Origin: Candidatus Parcubacteria bacterium
GTDB taxonomy: Bacteria > Patescibacteriota > Minisyncoccia > Sungbacterales > SURF-37
Assembly: GCA_003599755.1 (NCBI GenBank)
Contig: QZJO01000003.1
Location: 1-60,811, forward strand
Direction: 5' to 3'
DNA length: 60,811 nt
Under the pieces are notes generated by a model that ran no database searches, was not told the DNA's origin, and saw nothing but the letters and a program-made list of their open reading frames with translations. Numbering within the stretch: position 1 is the first letter of the stretch; every line of letters begins with the position of its first letter. Both the position numbers and the translations under genes were made by a program. This document shows positions 1-22,373 of this stretch, in pieces.

Positions 1-30
1 TACCACTTTTCGCGCAATCAAACAACGCGA

Positions 31-288
31 GGGCGCGGCGGAAGGGGGGTGTGGGGGGAATTCCGCCGCGCCCGAGCGCAGAAGCCCCGCCGCTCCGCCC
101 GAATACTTGGAGGGCGGAACCGAGCAGAAATTTCCCTTTCCTTTTTAGAATTTTTTTCAGGGGGCGCGCGTAAAAGAAAAATTGTAAGGGAAAATTTCTG
201 CGAGGTTGCCGCCGGAGCGTTAGCGGAGGCGGGCGGCGGGGCGGGAGCGTGCGATTTAGTTTCGCTTCACCACGCGCTCCGCGCGTGG
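31..288. repeat. Composite palindromic intergenic element
   Basis: Perfect 13-bp IR GGGCGCGGCGGAA 31-43 / 61-73; CCCCGCCGC 85-93 / 233-241; GCAGAAATTTCCCTT 124-138 / 186-201 (1-nt bulge); hairpin 270-288. Confidence 0.7.
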
Positions 289-604
289 CACATTGTCAGC
301 GATTTTGAAAATAGGTGCGAGCTTGGTAAAATAGAGACACCAAAACTAACTTTGTCGGAAATGATTGCTCCGCGCGGCGTACTCGCCGCCCGAGCGGTCG
401 GTTTGGCGCGCGAAGCGCGCCATCAGTTCCGTTCAAAGTAGGTTCGCGCGAAGTGTATAATTACAGCACCAGTAAGGAAATTGCAAGCGATGTCAGTTTG
501 TATCGCTCGGTTCTGTTCGAGACCGCGCATCTTGACTTTTTAAAAATTTTGTTATATTTGTAAAGTGGTTCATTGGCAATACGGTTAGAAAGGAGGTGGT
601 ACCG

Positions 605-880
605 ATGCGTGTCGAAGTGCCAACCTCGCTTCGAGCGATCGTGCTGAATATTCGCGGCAGCGGCGACAAACGGTTCGCCGTCGCGTATGCCGAAACGCCC
701 GAGGCGCCGTTCACAAACTCGACAAGCATCACCTTTTCCCTCTCGGACTGGACCGGTACAACTGATCCCCGAAAGGGCGAGGTGGTGGAGCTCGCTGAAA
801 TCAGGGAGTTCGCCAAAGGTTGGCGGGCCCTATTGGCGAGGCCAGCAACGAGCAGAAAGCAGAGAGGAGATTCGGGATGA
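605..880 (+). CDS. Small hypothetical protein, predicted beta-rich OB-fold-like
   Basis: AGGAGG at 591-596 before ATG 605; ATGA overlap with next gene; fold is inferred from residue pattern. Confidence 0.65.
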   Translation: MRVEVPTSLRAIVLNIRGSGDKRFAVAYAETPEAPFTNSTSITFSLSDWTGTTDPRKGEVVELAEIREFAKGWRALLARPATSRKQRGDSG

Positions 881-1536
881 AAACCCGCACTACCGAGGAG
901 TGGTTGAAGCAACTCGGTTTGCAGCTTCCGGCGAGTGATCGGGAGCGCGGAGAGTTCTACGCGCCGATCGCCGAATACTGCAACGTCAGCACGGCAACGG
1001 TGGGACAGTGGCTCGGGGGTAAGCGGCTCCCCGGAGGGGAACCGCTGCTGCGTCTCCGGTACTGGATCGCGAAAGGGAATGTGCTGGTTGCGGAGCTTGA
1101 GAAGCTGGATCCAGCGGTGAAAGCGCTCGGACAGCTGATCGCCGATGGCGAGCTTGAGCTTGAGAAGGTCTGGCAGGAGATCGGCTACGCTTCGCGCGAC
1201 GGCCTCTTCGACGCCCTGTTGCGCGGGCACATTCCGATCGCTGAACGGCTCGAAAAGATCCGCGAGATCGTGGCTCGGCATCGAAGGGGCGGAACATCTC
1301 CCGCCATCGATGACGGGGAAGCTTCATCCAAGCAGGTTGTGCTTCTCGCGCTTGCCTCGCTTGTGAAGGCAGTCACGCCGCTGGCGGATGTCATGCTTTC
1401 GGACGAGTTCAGCGCCGAGGAGCGGCAGGCTCTGCGCGACGCAACCGGCGGCGACGGGATTTACCGTCTCGCCAACATGATGAACCGGCTCTGTAGCGAA
1501 ACCGCCCGTAAGGCCATCAAGGTCTACACGGGCTAA
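877..1536 (+). CDS. Cro/CI-like HTH protein, probably two HTH units
   Basis: HTH-like IAEYCNVSTATVGQWLGGKRLP; second candidate VWQEIGYASRDGLFDALLRG; AGGAG upstream; ATGA coupling. Confidence 0.65.
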   Translation: MKTRTTEEWLKQLGLQLPASDRERGEFYAPIAEYCNVSTATVGQWLGGKRLPGGEPLLRLRYWIAKGNVLVAELEKLDPAVKALGQLIADGELELEKVWQEIGYASRDGLFDALLRGHIPIAERLEKIREIVARHRRGGTSPAIDDGEASSKQVVLLALASLVKAVTPLADVMLSDEFSAEERQALRDATGGDGIYRLANMMNRLCSETARKAIKVYTG

Positions 1537-1543
1537 CCTCAAC

Positions 1544-1571
1544 AGCAGGAAGCAGGAAGCAGAAAGCAAGG
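1544..1571 (+). repeat. Four tandem heptamers AGCA(G/A)(G/A)(A/G) ending in the SD of the ATPase gene
   Basis: AGCAGGA AGCAGGA AGCAGAA AGCAAGG, continuing into AGG. Confidence 0.7.
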
Positions 1572-1580
1572 AGGCAGCTC

Positions 1581-3269
1581 ATGCAACGGGTCAGCAAGCT
1601 GGAGTTCCACCAAGGGCAGGCGCTGCTCATCGCGGCGGACACCTACCCCACCATTCTGGATGTCCTCTACGAGGAGGTTCAGAACGCGTTGGACGAGGGT
1701 GCCACCAGGATCTGGATCGACGTCAACCAGAAGAAGAAGATCCGCCAGATCACCGTCCAGGACAACGGGAACGGCGCCTCGGTCGAGAAGTTCGAGAAGG
1801 CGCTGGTCACGGTCGGTCGGACGATGAAGAAGGAGGACAAGCTGGGACGCTTCGGGCGCGGACTCGTTTCCCCGCTCGGCAAGTGCGAGCGCTTCACCTT
1901 CACCTCGACGCCGAAGGACAACCCGCGGCTCTACCGCTGCTGGATGTTCGTGACGGACAAGATCGAGCATCAGACCCACAACCTTTCGATCCCCAGCGAG
2001 TCGAAGCAGAACCTGGTATACGGTGTCGCGGGTACGACCTCGAGCCGTCCAGGCGTGGTCGTGGTGCCGTGGCGCACCGAGGTGCGCATCGAGCGCTACA
2101 CCGAAGACCGGCACCGGGGGCATATCGACGTGGATTCCCTGCACGAAGGGATTCTCGACCGCTTCGCTACCACCATGCGGAAGCTCGGCACGGTCATCTC
2201 CGTCAGGATCCGCAACGAGGACGGAAAGGATACGGGACGCGAGTTTCGCGCCGAGTCGTTCAACGGCAAGCCGCTCGAGGTGTTCACCTCGAAGGACAAG
2301 GACGCGGGCGTCACCACCTTCCGTCTCTACATCGCACGCCGCACCGACAAGGGCCGTAAGGGCCGCGTCGGCATCGGCGAGATGGCGAACGACTTCCGGA
2401 TGCACTTCGGGGTCTTCGCCTACGCCGCCAAGGCGTGGCTCGAGGACGAGGTCGTGGCGGCGCTCAGTTCCGGCATCTTCGAGGGCGAGATCCTCACCGA
2501 GAAGGCGAGGCTCCACGCCTCCCGGAAGAAGTTCGAGGAGGATCAGGCACTGGTCGGCCTTTGCGGGTCGATCAACCACTGGTTCGACCAGGTCGGGAAG
2601 AAGATCTACGACGAGGCGAAGGAGATCCGCCGCGAGGAGGTTCTCCAGGAGTGCGGCGAGCGAACCATGAGCGTCATGCGATCGATGCTCTCGGCTCCAG
2701 AGTTCCAGTGGATCCGGGAAGGCGTACTGGGCTCAGTCCGGTACGGCACGGTCACTGCCGACCACATTCCCGTCAAACTGCGCGACCATGGCGAGCTTGT
2801 GGGCGTGCGCGTCACGGGCGGCGGTCCAGCCGAAGGCGGCGAGCACGGTGGCAACGGCAAGCCGTCGAGCGAGCTCTCCGGCGACACGCCGTTTTACGTC
2901 ACGGGACCGCGGGGAACGCAAAGGAAGCTCGTTCGGGACAACTCGATCGGGCTCGGGCTCTCACACAACGAGCTCACGGACCCCAACAAGTTCTGGGAGT
3001 TCGACGAGCGGAGCGGCATCATCACGCTCAACATCGGCCACCCCATCTGGGCGCAGGTCGAGAAGAGCGGCCGCATCGCCACGATGCGCTTCCAAGAGCT
3101 TCTGATCGTCTCAGTTCTCGTGCTGCAGACGATGCCCCCGAACATGCGGGATCAGCAGCGCCTGGCACTTGATGCCATCGTGAAGCCCTTCGCATACACG
3201 TTGACGGAGGGCGACGTGGTGGCAGGCCGGAAGCTCGGCCGTCCCAAGTCCGAGAAGAAGAAGAAGTAG
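1581..3269 (+). CDS. GHKL ATPase, MORC/HATPase_c_3-like, 562 aa
   Basis: GHKL motifs EEVQNALD, DNGNG, GRFGRG; C-terminal ITLNIGHPIW; SD AAGGAGG. Confidence 0.85.
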   Translation: MQRVSKLEFHQGQALLIAADTYPTILDVLYEEVQNALDEGATRIWIDVNQKKKIRQITVQDNGNGASVEKFEKALVTVGRTMKKEDKLGRFGRGLVSPLGKCERFTFTSTPKDNPRLYRCWMFVTDKIEHQTHNLSIPSESKQNLVYGVAGTTSSRPGVVVVPWRTEVRIERYTEDRHRGHIDVDSLHEGILDRFATTMRKLGTVISVRIRNEDGKDTGREFRAESFNGKPLEVFTSKDKDAGVTTFRLYIARRTDKGRKGRVGIGEMANDFRMHFGVFAYAAKAWLEDEVVAALSSGIFEGEILTEKARLHASRKKFEEDQALVGLCGSINHWFDQVGKKIYDEAKEIRREEVLQECGERTMSVMRSMLSAPEFQWIREGVLGSVRYGTVTADHIPVKLRDHGELVGVRVTGGGPAEGGEHGGNGKPSSELSGDTPFYVTGPRGTQRKLVRDNSIGLGLSHNELTDPNKFWEFDERSGIITLNIGHPIWAQVEKSGRIATMRFQELLIVSVLVLQTMPPNMRDQQRLALDAIVKPFAYTLTEGDVVAGRKLGRPKSEKKKK

Positions 3270-3277
3270 AGTAGAGA

Positions 3278-3311
3278 GCCCCGGGGTAGCGAACCCCGGG
3301 GCGTAATTTTT
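3278..3311 (+). terminator. Intrinsic terminator
   Basis: GCCCCGGGG-7nt-CCCCGGGGC then T-rich tract. Confidence 0.7.
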
Positions 3312-3393
3312 CAAAAAGTGTTGACAGAATACTATTTATGTGATAAAGGATGGAAAACACCAATCGGTTCGTTCGAAAGGGGTGAGGAGGAAG

Positions 3394-3738
3394 ATGGCCA
3401 CCTTGGAACAGACGATCAGGCAGGCAGCAGCCCGTTGGGCGGCAACAGCGCCGCTCTCCGAGCTGCTTCCCGTGGTCGGCAACCAGGAGCTTCCTTCGAC
3501 GAACAGTGCGCCAGCTGCACCGGCGCAATCCGTGCCGAAGAAGCGCCGGGCCCGGCGAAGGAAGAAGAACCGCCGCAAGTTCACCGAGGAAGAGCGGAAG
3601 CGAATCGTCGAGGCGCTCGGGAATCTCAAGCCCGGCAAGAAGCGCACGACAGCGATCGCGAAGCTCGCTGGGGCGCTGCAGGCTACGCCGCGGCAGATCA
3701 ACGGCGTCATGTCGCTCGCGAGACGCCGCGCGAAGTAG
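3394..3738 (+). CDS. Small basic protein with C-terminal HTH/homeodomain-like unit
   Basis: GAGGAGG SD; KKRRARRRKKNRRKFTEEERKRIVEAL then helical segment; TTGACA at 3321-3326. Confidence 0.65.
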   Translation: MATLEQTIRQAAARWAATAPLSELLPVVGNQELPSTNSAPAAPAQSVPKKRRARRRKKNRRKFTEEERKRIVEALGNLKPGKKRTTAIAKLAGALQATPRQINGVMSLARRRAK

Positions 3739-3752
3739 CGCGCGGCGAGAAG

Positions 3753-3786
3753 ACGGCCCGGAAGTTGGATACTTCCGGGCCGTTTC
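3753..3786 (+). terminator. Intrinsic terminator
   Basis: Perfect 13-bp stem ACGGCCCGGAAGT/ACTTCCGGGCCGT. Confidence 0.7.
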
Positions 3787-3855
3787 AATTACCACGAAGA
3801 TTGCTCCTAAGATCAATGATATATCCCGGGGTACGGCGAGTGCTTAGCGCAATAT

Positions 3856-4035
3856 ATGGCCGATGACATTAAACGAAAAATCGAAGAACTTGCCGCGCTC
3901 GGTAAAGATCGGAGCGAGATGGATCTGTGGCTCGGCCTTCTGCCGGCGATGACAGATGAGGAGCTTCAGGCGTTGTCGCGCAATATTTCAAGAGAGTTTG
4001 CCCTACTCCGCCCTGCAGGGGCGGATGCGAAATAG
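3856..4035 (+). CDS. 59-aa helical hypothetical protein (below ORF-track cutoff)
   Basis: Hand translation MADDIKRKIEELAALGKDRSEMDLWLGLLPAMTDEELQALSRNISREFALLRPAGADAK; strong hairpin follows. Confidence 0.6.
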   Translation: MADDIKRKIEELAALGKDRSEMDLWLGLLPAMTDEELQALSRNISREFALLRPAGADAK

Positions 4036-4054
4036 GTAGGACAGCGGTGCTTCG

Positions 4055-4088
4055 AGAAAACCGCTCAGCATTCGCTGAGCGGTTTTCT
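4055..4088 (+). terminator. Terminator hairpin
   Basis: Perfect 15-bp stem AGAAAACCGCTCAGC/GCTGAGCGGTTTTCT. Confidence 0.7.
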
Positions 4089-4154
4089 GCAATGCAATGC
4101 GCGTATTGTCCAGGAGGCGGTAATGCGGTATTCTGCAATCAATAAGATTTATCT

Positions 4155-4841
4155 ATGAATAATCGCACTCTTATGATCGGTGGGGTCGCGGCGGTTGCGA
4201 TCATTATCGCCGCCGGCTACTTCTTCTGGCCCGCGGGGATCAGCGAAAACGGCATTCTGCCTGAGCCGCAGTCCATTGTCACGGACGACGCGGGAGAGGG
4301 ACAGTTGGCCGCGCCATCCCCTGTTCCGGCAGGATCGCCGCCGGCGCAAACGGTTTTGGTAAGCGGCGGGGATCTGCGCACGTACCAAAGCGCGGATCTT
4401 GGGCTCTCATTCCGGTATCCGGACCGGTATTTCGTGAGCTGGCCGGTACCATCAAGCACGAGCGTTATCGTGCGGCTCTATAAAACCGCGGATCGCGCCA
4501 AAGTGGATAATGTAACCCTTGAAAAAATCGCCGAGCTTGAATTCGCGCGCTATACCAATCCCCTCGCGACAACCGTGCAAGGGCTTGCCCAGCTCTGGGG
4601 TGAATCATTTCTCGGCATTCGCTTCCGCACCGCGGAGCAGTGCAAGGACATCACCGTTGCCAGCGAACCGGCGTTGCGCTGTTCGCTATATGCGGGAACG
4701 GACCGCGGCGGCTACCGCACGGCAGTATTCACGATGCATGGTGATGAATTCTATCGGTTTTCGGTGAGCGCTCCGAAGAGCGACGATCCGGCCCAGACCG
4801 ATTTCGGGACCATACTTGCCTCGATTCGCTGGAACGACTAG
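4155..4841 (+). CDS. Membrane-anchored extracellular protein, PsbP-like fold likely
   Basis: N-terminal TM, Pro-rich linker, YQSADLGLSFRYPDRY and terminal FGTILASIRW pattern. Confidence 0.6.
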   Translation: MNNRTLMIGGVAAVAIIIAAGYFFWPAGISENGILPEPQSIVTDDAGEGQLAAPSPVPAGSPPAQTVLVSGGDLRTYQSADLGLSFRYPDRYFVSWPVPSSTSVIVRLYKTADRAKVDNVTLEKIAELEFARYTNPLATTVQGLAQLWGESFLGIRFRTAEQCKDITVASEPALRCSLYAGTDRGGYRTAVFTMHGDEFYRFSVSAPKSDDPAQTDFGTILASIRWND

Positions 4842-4953: not shown

Positions 4954-4984
4954 GCGACTGTTTTACATCCCGCACCATTTATTT

Positions 4985-5056
4985 GGGCACTTAGCTCAGT
5001 GGTAGAGCGACTGTTTTACACACAGTAGGTCGGGGGTTCGATCCCCTCAGTGCCCA
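4985..5056 (+). tRNA. tRNA-Val(TAC)
   Basis: Full cloverleaf; arm ACTGT-TTTACAC-ACAGT; GGTTCGATCC T-arm; CCA not encoded. Confidence 0.95.
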
Positions 5057-5192
5057 CATATAAAAATGGTGCGGGACAGGCGCCGTAGGTCGGGGTTCCT
5101 TGCTCGCCGGCAGGCGAGGATCCCCTCAGCGCGCATTATTGAAGTAGTTTTCTGACATGAAGAAGCCCGCCGCTGGCGCCTCGCATACATAC

Positions 5193-5225
5193 CGGCGCAT
5201 GTACTACAATGTAATACATGCGCCG
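5193..5225. promoter_or_regulatory. Palindrome over RHH start codon, putative operator
   Basis: CGGCGCATGTA-11nt-TACATGCGCCG; ATG 5218 lies in the right arm. Confidence 0.45.
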
Positions 5226-5394
5226 AAAAGTAATTTCATTGTCCCTCCCCGCTCCCCTAGTTGAGCGGATAGAAAAGATACGGCAAGCTGAGAGTCAGAC
5301 GCGATCAGAGCTGATTCGCGCCGCGTTACGGCTTTACTTCAAAAACTTCGAAAAGGAGGTAAAGAGCGGTGCACGCAAACGAAAGCGGGTATGA
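5218..5394 (+). CDS. Ribbon-helix-helix (CopG/Arc/MetJ) protein, 58 aa (below ORF-track cutoff)
   Basis: MRRKVISLSLPAPLVERIEKIRQAESQTRSELIRAALRLYF fits the RHH pattern; ATGA overlap with yraN. Confidence 0.75.
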   Translation: MRRKVISLSLPAPLVERIEKIRQAESQTRSELIRAALRLYFKNFEKEVKSGARKRKRV

Positions 5395-9646: not shown

Positions 9647-10012
9647 ATGTCTGACTTTCCGACTCGCGAAACTCCTTGGGGCAAGGAGGTGTTGCTGTGG
9701 GGCGGCCTCGGCGCGCCGGTTACCGTCAAGATTTTGACGGTGAATCCGGGTCAGCGTTTCAGCTTGCAGCGCCATCGGCATCGCATGGAGCACTGGACCG
9801 TGTTATCACCCGAGGGCGGCATCATCCGCATCGGTGACCAAGAGTATCCCGCCGAGCAGGGAAAGGAATTCACGGTGCCGGCCGGCGCGCTGCACCGGAT
9901 GACCGCGCCGCAGGGCGGCGAACTTTCCGTATTGGAAATTGCCACTGGTAAATTCGATCAGGACGATATAGAACGATTGGAGGACGACTACGGGCGCGTA
10001 GCTCAACGGTAG
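9647..10012 (+). CDS. Cupin protein, mannose-6-phosphate isomerase type II C-terminal-like
   Basis: PWG, VKILTVNPGQRFSLQRHRHRMEHW, HRM, DDIERLEDDYGR. Confidence 0.9.
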   Translation: MSDFPTRETPWGKEVLLWGGLGAPVTVKILTVNPGQRFSLQRHRHRMEHWTVLSPEGGIIRIGDQEYPAEQGKEFTVPAGALHRMTAPQGGELSVLEIATGKFDQDDIERLEDDYGRVAQR

Positions 10013-10063
10013 AGCGGTCGCCTTATACGCGACTGGTTCTAGGTTCGAATCCTAGCGCGCCCA
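9992..10063 (+). tRNA. tRNA-Ile(TAT)
   Basis: Cloverleaf GGGCGCG/CGCGCCC-A; arm GTCGC-CTTATAC-GCGAC; GGTTCGAATCC; C4:G69 and A73. Confidence 0.88.
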
Positions 10064-10064
10064 C

Positions 10065-10190
10065 CCGAGCTTATAATCGGCAGCAAGCGAGGAATGAGAA
10101 TTCGTTCTCATTCCGAGTGCGCGAACCGGTTATATCAAGCGAAGCGCAGATATACCTCGGCGGTTCCTGGTTCGAGTCCAGGCGGGCCGG
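10065..10190 (+). pseudogene. Fragmented tRNA-Ile-like remnant interrupted by hairpins
   Basis: CCGA-GCTTATAA-TCGG arm; 10-bp UUCG hairpin 10091-10114; T-arm CCTGG-TTCGAGT-CCAGG 10166-10182; no D-arm. Confidence 0.45.
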
Positions 10191-20734: not shown

Positions 20735-22078
20735 CTACCGGCCGGGACCCTTCGGTCTGCCGCCAGCCGGAACCGGCGTCGCGGCCATGTCGTCCTTGGC
20801 GGTCGTCACCGTCTTGCCGGTGACGATCCCGAGATCCGTGCCGAGCTGCCGAGCCGTGTGGGCCGTCAGCAGCTGAACGAGATCGGCCGCGGCGGAGGCA
20901 GCCTGCGCATTCCCCGCCTGACCGCCGCCCATCACGATCTGCGGAACGAGCTGGGCGCCCTTCAGCGCCTCGGCGTACTGGGCGTTGATCTTCACGAGCG
21001 CTTCGAGCTTCTTGTCGAGGGCGCCGTCGGCGTTCATGACGAGCTGGCGCTTCGCCGCCTCGCCTTCGCCCTCAAGGATGAGCTTGCGCTTGTTCTGCTC
21101 GGCCGCTTCGGCTGCGAGTTTGGCGACCTGCTTGTTCTTCTCGGCCTCGGCGACATCTTTGGCGTTGACCTTCTCCTGCTCCCACTTGGCCTGGGCGGCG
21201 TTGGCCTTGCCTTCCCATTCCACGGTGATGGCGCGCTGCTCGGCCTTCTTGGCGGACGCGACCGAGGTCTGCACGTCCATCGCAATCTGCTGCTGCTGCT
21301 GGATCTGCGCCTCGACGGTGTCGTCGTAGGGCAGCTTCTTGATCGTGAAGTTGAAGGCGCGGATGCCGAACTCGGCGAGCGCGGAGATCTCCTGGCGCTC
21401 CGGCTTGCCGTCCTTGTCCACCACGATCTCGGCGGCGGTGATGGTCTTCTCCTGCCCCGACAGCATGTCCTTGAAGCGGACCTCGCGCTGTCGGGTCTTG
21501 TAGACGCCGAGCTGGATCTGATCCTCCACGTAGTGGATCAGGTCGTTCCGCTTCTCGGCGTAGGACTCCTTGGAGCTCATCGTCGGACCGGCGTGGTAGA
21601 TCGCCTTGTTGGCGCTCGTCTCGATGACCTGCTGCTGGACCGCTTCCTGGCTGCCGTAGCGCGTGTGGATCGCGGTGAGGTTCTTCGCGTCGAGCGGCAT
21701 GTCGTACTGGATCGAGCCCAGCATCGTGCCGTGGCCGCCGTCGTTGAAGCGGACTTCGAGCCCGCAACAGACGAGCTTCCTCGTCACCTTGCCGTCCTTG
21801 TCCTTGATCTCCTCATACTTCTCGGTGTCGAAGCGGTAGATGGACCGCTTCTTGTAGGTGGTCACCTTGCCGAACCACTGCGGCTTCACGCCGGCCGTGG
21901 TGTACCAGGTGAGCGTGCCTTCGAGGGGCGACTGCACGACGAGGATCTCGTCGGCATCGATCTTCTCGAAGGACATGAAGACCGCGAAGACGATGACCAC
22001 CGCGAGGATGGCGGCCATGCCGAGAGCGAAGATGCGGCGAAGTGAGATCGGCCCCTGCGTTGTCTGCGTCGGACTCAT
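20735..22078 (-). CDS. SPFH/band 7 (flotillin-like) protein
   Basis: N-terminal TM, SPFH-like core, EAEK/AEAAE-rich coiled coil, LVPQIVMGG tail. Confidence 0.85.
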   Translation of the reverse strand: MSPTQTTQGPISLRRIFALGMAAILAVVIVFAVFMSFEKIDADEILVVQSPLEGTLTWYTTAGVKPQWFGKVTTYKKRSIYRFDTEKYEEIKDKDGKVTRKLVCCGLEVRFNDGGHGTMLGSIQYDMPLDAKNLTAIHTRYGSQEAVQQQVIETSANKAIYHAGPTMSSKESYAEKRNDLIHYVEDQIQLGVYKTRQREVRFKDMLSGQEKTITAAEIVVDKDGKPERQEISALAEFGIRAFNFTIKKLPYDDTVEAQIQQQQQIAMDVQTSVASAKKAEQRAITVEWEGKANAAQAKWEQEKVNAKDVAEAEKNKQVAKLAAEAAEQNKRKLILEGEGEAAKRQLVMNADGALDKKLEALVKINAQYAEALKGAQLVPQIVMGGGQAGNAQAASAAADLVQLLTAHTARQLGTDLGIVTGKTVTTAKDDMAATPVPAGGRPKGPGR

Positions 22079-22121
22079 CGAGCCCCTCCTGTTGTACGGA
22101 ATGTTGGTTGACGGTTGGCGG

Positions 22122-22373
22122 TTAGGACCTGGCCTTGCGCCGGTCCTTGCCGCGAAGATCGGTCACCCGACCGCGCTCCTCTTCGACCACGTGCTCGAGC
22201 TCGGCTGCCTGAGCGTCCTCGCGGAGCTCGGTCAGTTGCGATTCGAGCTGGCGCTGTTTGGACCGGAAGATCGGAAAGACCTTGGTCCCGCGCCACATCG
22301 GGACGAACACTTGGGTCGCGAAGATGAGCAGAACCACTGCGATCACCAGGAACTCGAGGTACCGAAGAAACAT
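22122..22373 (-). CDS. Small single-TM coiled-coil protein upstream of SPFH
   Basis: AGGAGG SD; TM then charged helix. Confidence 0.75.
   Translation of the reverse strand: MFLRYLEFLVIAVVLLIFATQVFVPMWRGTKVFPIFRSKQRQLESQLTELREDAQAAELEHVVEEERGRVTDLRGKDRRKARS

Follow-up and report, generated by a model that had tools for sequence, protein, structure and literature searches.

What does a GHKL-type ATPase do when its constant companion is a putative DNA-binding protein and no nuclease can be recognised beside it? The question is raised by a locus in contig QZJO01000003.1 of Candidatus Parcubacteria bacterium (assembly GCA_003599755.1), of which we analysed positions 1 to 60,811 (hereafter the window, 60,811 nt in all). 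Four genes, here called A, B, C and D, make up the locus, and C encodes the ATPase. Each is listed below with its product length, isoelectric point (pI) where noted, and Shine-Dalgarno (SD) sequence.

605-880, + strand: gene A, 91 aa, pI 9.8, SD aaaggagg
877-1536, + strand: gene B, 219 aa, SD gagaggag
1581-3269, + strand: gene C, 562 aa, pI 9.2, SD caaggagg
3394-3738, + strand: gene D, 114 aa, pI 12.0, 27 Lys/Arg residues, SD gtgaggagg

Patescibacteria account for a large share of bacterial diversity and carry few recognisable defence systems, and to our knowledge almost nothing is known about how their tiny genomes handle phages and foreign DNA. Here, we show that B and C are neighbours at each of 56 loci, whereas A and D come and go. 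The reading that we favour, tentatively and at somewhat less than an even chance, is that the unit is an undescribed two-component system, a DNA-directed ATPase clamp that acts against foreign DNA.

The B-C pair and its optional partners

A protein database search recovered 56 full-length homologues of C at 30-57% identity, nearly all of them labelled Patescibacteria, the few other labels being attached to metagenome bins; 55 C loci lie in contigs, with one genome per species. At all 56 loci, B lies immediately upstream of C in the same orientation. When the presence of A, B and D was scored with hidden Markov models (HMMs) built from the neighbours, A stood directly upstream of B at 16 of the 56, and D-like genes occurred at four. 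The concern that these genes might not co-occur elsewhere is thereby answered, and the four-gene module proposed in an earlier sequence-only reading of the locus is narrowed: its core is the B-C pair, while the full four-gene set is the variant of one lineage. The unit is best explained as an obligate B+C pair to which A and D are added as optional basic accessory binders. The papers searched, which include accounts of prokaryotic MORC/paraMORC systems (PMC2292703) and of Tiamat (10.64898/2026.09.30.754977), report no B-C pairing, and nothing of such a kind in Patescibacteria.

In the window itself, A-B-C is a tightly coupled operon, in which the stop codon of A (TGA) and the start codon of B (ATG) overlap as ATGA at 877-880 and a gap of 44 nt separates B from C; D is a separate, very basic gene. 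The strong SD sequences, high G+C content at third codon positions (GC3) and own terminator that had been claimed for the three-gene unit are all borne out. The host genome comprises 928,662 bp in 13 contigs and holds the cassette in a single copy, with no part of window positions 1-4200 repeated elsewhere in it. A genome search places the host in Patescibacteria, and the nearest homologues come from Sungbacteria and Parcubacteria.

Protein A is predicted to be all-beta, with the motif ITFSL..W.G...P..GQVV.L....F.KGWRA..ARP, and its alignment displays a five-strand pattern with an invariant W...G.RA motif. The earlier description of A as OB-like agrees with that pattern; no relative of A was found in Pfam or PDB, and the label remains a guess. 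In a maximum-likelihood (ML) tree of C, A-bearing cassettes are scattered within one of the two major clades, often beside sisters that lack A, and we therefore consider that A was lost repeatedly. The window's C groups with a Sungbacteria cassette that likewise bears both A and D. At one locus (L073, 4410-5163) two A-like genes were observed, one in the usual place and one divergent on the opposite strand just upstream.

The D-like genes lie downstream of the pair in the window and at L024, and upstream of it at L021 and L049. Their products share an N-terminal RWA..APL.EL motif, a poly-basic tract (KKRRARRRKK in D) and a C-terminal ..PRQI.. helix. D was earlier called a basic helix-turn-helix (HTH) protein; the charge is evident, whereas the HTH assignment goes back to hints with E values of 0.07-0.24. 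No homologue of D was found by word-indexed search, and no informative match in Pfam or PDB; word-indexed homologue searches with D and with the B profile returned almost nothing.

The ATPase and its putative HTH partner

Only residues 28-139 of C match a Pfam family (HATPase_c_3, E 3.7e-13, above the family cut-off). Motifs I-III for Mg-ATP binding (E..N..D; D.G.G; G..G.G) are all present, and E31, N35, D38, D61, G63, G65 and G94 are invariant among 53 homologues, in agreement with the full GHKL motif set previously claimed. The AlphaFold2 (AF2) model of C (mean predicted local distance difference test, pLDDT, 89.4) falls into five parts:

residues ~1-180: GHKL domain
residues ~184-320: S5/transducer-like middle domain, alpha/beta
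residues 322-383: long helical hairpin of ~60 residues
residues ~400-435: Gly/acidic linker, partly disordered
residues 438-548: beta-rich domain plus three helices, holding LNIGHP at 483-488

With a second, S5-like domain behind the GHKL domain, the model matches the MutL N-terminal part, the GyrB 43K fragment and the N and middle domains of Hsp90 over 370-480 columns. Judged by sequence and predicted fold, C is a GHKL+S5 ATPase of the GHL branch with an intact active site, to which R273 (at least 90% conserved) and R315 (invariant) of the S5-like domain are candidate contributors of basic residues.

Foldseek ranked full-length Hsp90 structures first for C (E 2.5e-13, ~475 columns), followed by GyrB 43K and MutL N-terminal fragments (E ~1e-10 for MutL), and against viral fold models it returned giant-virus proteins, phage topoisomerase subunits and rIIA-like proteins. 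At the profile level, hhalign aligned C residues 17-285 with E. coli HtpG up to HtpG residue 326, that is, with the N-domain and half of the middle domain (probability 96%, E 3e-9). An HtpG profile built from six sequences was further compared by hhalign with the C-terminal profile of C, which ran collinear with the HtpG dimerisation helices at 563-617 over 52 columns (E 1.1e-3, but a probability of only 21%); the aligned stretches read GiLxFNxxHPLW...LMrlQE..aiQALtL in the C family and ILELNPxHxLV...LLLDQALL in HtpG. The likeness of LNIGHP to the Hsp90 C-domain, which the sequence-only reading had noticed, thus has weak profile-profile support. Given the Hsp90-like layout, a dimeric, ATP-gated clamp is predicted, and the C dimer is probably held together by these Hsp90-like C-terminal helices.

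In other respects C departs from Hsp90. The Pfam HSP90 family PF00183 gave no match at E up to 0.1, and the NCBIfam model NF010683 scored 20.4 bits against a cut-off of 455. C carries a long helical hairpin and a disordered Gly/acidic linker, and is basic where Hsp90 is acidic: the median pI of the family is 9.07, with 96% of members above pI 8, against a pI of 5 for HtpG. In our reading, this basic charge points to nucleic acid rather than protein clients. Moreover, C is a patchily distributed accessory gene with an obligate, putative HTH partner, whereas Hsp90 is a housekeeping protein.

Among GHKL families, those of the MORC and paraMORC1-5 group (PMC2292703) resemble C in having a HATPase_c_3-type GHKL domain followed by an S5-like domain, and in a sporadic distribution that suggests lateral transfer; like paraMORC1 and paraMORC5, C also has a family-specific C-terminal extension. 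C had been taken for a MORC-family ATPase. This placement does not stand: none of the 53 members carries the MORC S5 signature, GhXhhpXXRhl (Iyer, Abhiman and Aravind 2008, PMC2292703), in the S5 region, and the pattern matched only once, at residue 63 in one protein, within the GHKL domain. Unlike MORC and paraMORC loci, which include a superfamily II (SFII) helicase, a restriction-fold nuclease, HNH, a methylase or TIR, the 56 C loci include none of these, and the partner of C is a putative tandem-HTH protein, a pairing not in the MORC survey (PMC2292703).

MutL provides the strongest sequence-level matches in PDB (E 1.2e-7, GHKL motifs I-II) and, like C, runs from an ATPase through a flexible linker to a C-terminal domain. 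The MutL-MutS couple is also a parallel for the pair, in that a second protein, which binds DNA, would recruit C. On the other side, the MutL model TIGR00585 matched only residues 28-75 and scored 27.3 bits, where its cut-off is 180, and C has neither a DNA_mis_repair nor a MutL_C domain, nor a MutS partner.

Finally, partial matches to the GHKL core of C in defence and NCBI libraries (TmtA, MzaB, sacsin, MutL and BbrUII-type proteins) were all far below the cut-offs. The best PADLOC matches were Tiamat TmtA (E 8.2e-9) and MzaB (E 1e-3), and NCBIfam gave the sacsin N-terminal domain (E 7.5e-9) and MzaB (E 7.4e-6). TmtA, MzaB and sacsin-type proteins are all GHL ATPases of conflict systems, yet the matches cover ~80 residues of the GHKL core in models 480-1550 positions long; for TmtA, C residues 18-95 align with positions 68-144 of a 1486-position model. 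TmtA is one large protein with a GHL N-domain, a DUF3684/TPR core and a C-terminal PD-(D/E)xK nuclease (10.64898/2026.09.30.754977), whereas C has 562 aa and lacks both that core and that nuclease; likewise, none of the Mza partner genes is found here. The check for known defence systems with PADLOC therefore ends with no whole-protein match to a described system.

Could C itself hide a nuclease? Residues ~386-548 might be a cryptic metal-dependent nuclease under the GHKL+S5 part, as in MutL or paraMORC3, which B would target to DNA. We consider this unlikely, as we do its expected outcome, a restriction-like or abortive-infection defence. The C-terminal domain does conserve polar residues of the kind that form metal sites, with H395 and N484 invariant, R448, H487, Q505 and E506 conserved in at least 90% of members, and H435, C492 and E493 frequent. 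Its position behind an N-terminal ATPase and a disordered linker copies the layout of MutL, and the ATPases of related GHKL families usually act together with a nuclease that is fused to them or encoded next to them (PMC2292703; 10.64898/2026.09.30.754977). However, the C-terminal profile has no sequence relative in Pfam, nucleases included (E up to 1), and nothing meaningful in PDB. The beta-beta-alpha stretch at N484/H487 lacks the catalytic His that would end the first strand, and aligns instead with the non-catalytic C-terminal helices of Hsp90. As to the surroundings, no nuclease or methylase had been seen in or near the ATPase in the sequence-only reading, and Pfam, NCBIfam, PHROGs and PADLOC searches likewise found none in or beside A-B-C-D; none recurs across the 56 loci.

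We next turn to B, whose AF2 model (pLDDT 91.8, 13 helices) divides as follows:

residues ~20-137: putative N-terminal XRE-type HTH region(s)
residues ~138-150: flexible linker
residues 151-218: conserved C-terminal four-helix tail, PL...SD.F..EER..LR..G..G.FRL.N...RLCSE.AR

Foldseek gave weak XRE/Cro-type matches to B (P22 c2 repressor, C.Kpn2I, HigA), all with E above 0.4, and the window's own B has no Pfam HTH match. Among its homologues, Pfam HTH_3 was found in seven of 55 (best E 1.1e-6) and HTH_31 in six, with further homologues matching HTH_17 and HTH_23, and a W45..P52.G54 pattern is conserved in the first HTH. The family is large: a profile search of 1.84 billion representative proteins returned 1,412 clusters (50% identity) at E up to 1e-10. 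The number of HTH modules ranges from one to three across the family; in long relatives of B (380-696 aa) the HTH module is present two to three times and the tail once, a layout that fits a DNA-binding part of variable valency joined to one docking part. B diverges faster than C, with a mean column identity of 18% against 41%.

Distribution, expression signals and base composition

Full-length C was present in four of 401 sampled Patescibacteria genomes, the window's own included, and in one of 30 relatives, the carrier being one of four species of its genus. In this carrier, a 3.5-kb block D-A-B-C lies between a PMM-like hydrolase gene and purD. Two sister species have these flanking genes side by side, separated by ~220 and ~840 bp, and the block is missing altogether. 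The site is thus cleanly polymorphic for presence or absence of the block, and as D lies within the 3.5-kb indel of this closest relative, D is part of the mobile unit. For the window's own locus no empty site was found, the downstream 228-aa gene having no homologue in the 30 relatives, and the search for direct repeats or att sites flanking the window cassette gave nothing convincing; a 21-nt family at 532 and 6052 is the general promoter box. Because that 228-aa protein lacks homologues in the relatives, a wider accessory stretch may run from the contig start to tRNA-Val.

The window shows the following beyond D and around this tRNA:

3856-4035: 59-aa acidic orphan open reading frame (ORF), followed by a perfect 15-bp hairpin at 4055-4088
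4155-4841: 228-aa orphan protein with an N-terminal hydrophobic helix
5007-5020: 14 nt of the tRNA-Val(TAC) anticodon arm, with an exact copy 53 nt upstream at 4954-4967
5040-5056: 3' end of tRNA-Val(TAC), repeated at 88% at 5119-5135
5186-5232: 23-nt near-palindrome overlapping the start of a ribbon-helix-helix (RHH) gene ahead of yraN
9992-10065: tRNA-Ile with anticodon UAU, called by ARAGORN

The repeats around tRNA-Val could be scars of integration events at that tRNA.

Across the family, insertion sites vary between lineages, and the annotated flanks are housekeeping genes that differ by lineage (PMM/purD, lysS/mraZ, murC/S1, M50/proS). When all ORFs within 3.5 kb were clustered for the 56 loci, no neighbour recurred besides A, and no nuclease, methylase or helicase did. 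The restriction-modification-like or conflict-locus setting expected from prokaryotic MORC-type ATPases is thus not what surrounds the pair. Genes of mobile-element or defence type were seen in one flank only, at L005 (108-5531), where B-C lies between an RVT_1 reverse transcriptase with a TrmB-like gene and a GIY-YIG gene.

The pair is also present on one or two probable huge-phage contigs. A 354-kb IMG/VR record (CheckV 98% complete) carries B-C with ThyX, dUTPase and a phage-type RNase H next to it; its phage assignment derives from IMG/VR and CheckV, the absence of rpS3 and translational GTPases, and the phage RNase H, and no Terminase_6N or Terminase_6C match was found in it. On a second phage-like contig, of 217 kb, the pair lies beside genes for thymidylate kinase, dCTP deaminase and phage endonuclease VII. 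In the ML tree of C, the two phage-like copies group together inside the bacterial diversity.

The cassette begins 600 nt from the start of the contig, and its left border is thus out of view. Signals for its expression in the window are:

432-461, + strand: sigma-70-like promoter candidate TTCAAA-18-TATAAT (consensus scan, 10 of 12 matches), 144 nt 5' of A
532-558, + strand: promoter-like box read from sequence, TTGACT at 532-537, a T/A-rich spacer and TATATT at 553-558
3278-3302, + strand: intrinsic terminator of A-B-C, a 10-bp stem with nine G-C pairs and the T-rich tail GTAATTTTTC
3321-3348, + strand: promoter-like region of D read from sequence, TTGACA at 3321-3326 and an A/T-rich -10-like stretch at ~3342-3348
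3755-3781, + strand: hairpin 3' of D read from sequence, 11-bp stem GGCCCGGAAGT/ACTTCCGGGCC

The operon promoter is ambiguous, with the 432-461 candidate and the 532-558 box as possible alternatives. The latter contains the palindrome TTTTTAAAAA at 537-546 inside its spacer, which at 15 nt is short, and hence the consensus scan made no call; the family-wide TTGACTTTT box sits here, at 532-540, and a cTTGACTTTT box lies 5' of many homologous cassettes. The consensus scan likewise made no call for the promoter-like region of D. D had been read as separately terminated; the hairpin at 3755-3781 that follows it has a T-poor tail and was not called by the scan. Upstream, window positions 1-500 are G+C-rich and non-coding-looking, with imperfect inverted repeats at 26-43/61-78 and 118-146/179-207, promoter-like sites at 305-332 and 432-461, and no Rfam match.

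In about half of the cassettes, the stretch from the promoter box to the ribosome-binding site holds a motif resembling TCTTTGACAA. In a Gibbs search that left out the SD region, the motif had an information content of 7.99 bits, against 6.51 +/- 0.17 in shuffled leaders, and its density in leaders is ~7-fold that in the remaining intergenic DNA of these loci, with a matrix that was trained on those leaders. TCTTTGACAA could be a candidate operator of B. A hairpin or RNA thermometer that sequesters the SD sequence was rejected as an explanation of the motif (predicted SD unpaired probability 0.52 in cassette leaders versus 0.46 in control genes, Mann-Whitney p 0.84).

Base composition sets the cassette apart from its surroundings. 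In the window, C has a GC3 of 0.86 against a mean of 0.70 (standard deviation 0.066) and ranks 4th of 574 long ORFs in the host genome. Across the family, cassette G+C exceeds that of the flanks in 47 of 50 loci (mean 7.3 points), and GC3 exceeds the mean of flanking long ORFs in 41 of 41 loci for C (mean +0.18) and in 39 of 41 for B (+0.11), counts that overstate the statistics since related loci are not independent. GC3 of C tracks that of the host (r 0.73). A single recent transfer from a GC-rich donor is ruled out as the cause because the members are only 30-57% identical and their hosts span 33-59% G+C. The highest-GC3 genes of the host genome form a mixed set that was uninformative as an expression proxy. 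The highest GC3 of the whole genome, 0.905, belongs to a gene at 20738-22162 (- strand) whose 475-aa product reads as SPFH/band-7-like, with a long Ala/Lys/Glu-rich coiled coil. That the excess is so uniform while host G+C ranges over 33-59% is an evolutionary signal that calls for an explanation of its own.

These features might also describe a selfish or phage-derived, moron-like and self-transcribed cassette that spreads by recombination, persists through addiction or through superinfection exclusion like rIIA-type GHKL proteins, and brings the cell no further benefit. Such an origin would account for the own promoter and terminator, the deviant GC3 at all 41 loci, the scattered insertion sites without an integrase and the copies on probable huge phages that nest within the bacterial tree; moreover, the viral fold search yields many rIIA-like proteins (E 1e-8 to 1e-10), and toxin-antitoxin loci commonly place an XRE-HTH gene ahead of a larger one. 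Nevertheless, the rIIA matches are no better than those of any GHKL+S5 protein (TMq ~0.33), and we know of no GHKL toxin. The family is old and under purifying selection, with 30-57% identity and invariant catalytic residues, which fits a retained function. We therefore regard a purely selfish cassette as doubtful, more so than a cryptic nuclease.

A proposed clamp directed to DNA

That C is instead a divergent chaperone where HtpG is missing, with B as autoregulator, co-chaperone or client and A as a p23-like co-chaperone, is in our view improbable. In its favour, full-length Hsp90s are its best PDB fold matches, the HtpG alignments extend over the N-domain, the C-terminal helices and half of the middle domain, our reading of the alignments puts LH..R (invariant R315) at the place of the Hsp90 catalytic-loop Arg, and canonical HSP90 (PF00183) was found in none of 151 sampled Patescibacteria genomes (G000 among them, 131 of high quality). 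Against it, C is basic (pI ~9) where Hsp90s are acidic, fails the Pfam and NCBIfam HSP90 models, and would be an unlikely general chaperone in ~1% of genomes, patchy within a genus and with an obligate HTH partner.

What we observe is consistent with a clamp directed to DNA by its partner. In the mechanism that we propose, B would bind DNA, as its HTH fold suggests, and its tail would dock on C, as suggested by the strict co-occurrence and the single tail per protein. On ATP binding, the dimer of C would then close at its N-terminal gate, in the manner of Hsp90, MutL and MORC, so that the closed dimer might clamp or bridge DNA marked by B, and hydrolysis would reset the clamp. The sporadic, mobile and phage-shared distribution suggests a role in foreign-DNA conflicts; a likely use would be foreign-DNA control, in which the pair may silence or exclude phages and other mobile DNA, or serve one phage in competition with another. 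The DNA-compaction or anti-MGE role put forward in the sequence-only reading is likewise conjectural.

Several observations weigh against this reading. DNA binding by B, the B-C contact and dimerisation of C are all steps that we infer. No effector such as a nuclease was found through which clamping would harm foreign DNA. The Hsp90 C-terminal match, on which the dimer leans, is weak (probability 21%), and the best match to the leader motif in the window, TCATTGGCAA at 570-579, is also weak at 5.95 bits. In PADLOC-DB 2.0.0, A, B and D have no significant match and C has matches over part of the GHKL core only. The neighbours are housekeeping genes, not defence islands, and the phage assignment of both large contigs comes from few markers, with no terminase found.

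In a bolder version, C would be the first ATPase of Hsp90 architecture to act on DNA, a constitutive, ATP-gated dimer clamp with a multi-HTH adaptor that provides nuclease-free silencing or exclusion and is confined to ultra-small Patescibacteria and their giant phages; we offer it as a speculation with a rather small chance of being right. If it were true, the nuclease-free clamp would do with two proteins in prokaryotes what MORC-type silencing does, and the raised GC3 might mean that the cassette avoids resembling its own AT-rich target, or that GC-biased conversion acts on a cassette prone to recombination.

Our analysis contributes a match of the C-terminus to Hsp90, the basic character of the C family, the HTH duplication in B, an empty site whose missing block includes D, the universal GC3 excess and the leader motif. 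Overall, B-C is a sizeable, unannotated and strictly paired family in which a clamp of the Hsp90/MutL type is joined to a putative DNA-binding adaptor, with no recognisable nuclease. Should the pair act on DNA, it would offer a simple two-protein bacterial model of MORC-like, nuclease-free genome control, and would widen the known range of Hsp90-architecture machines.

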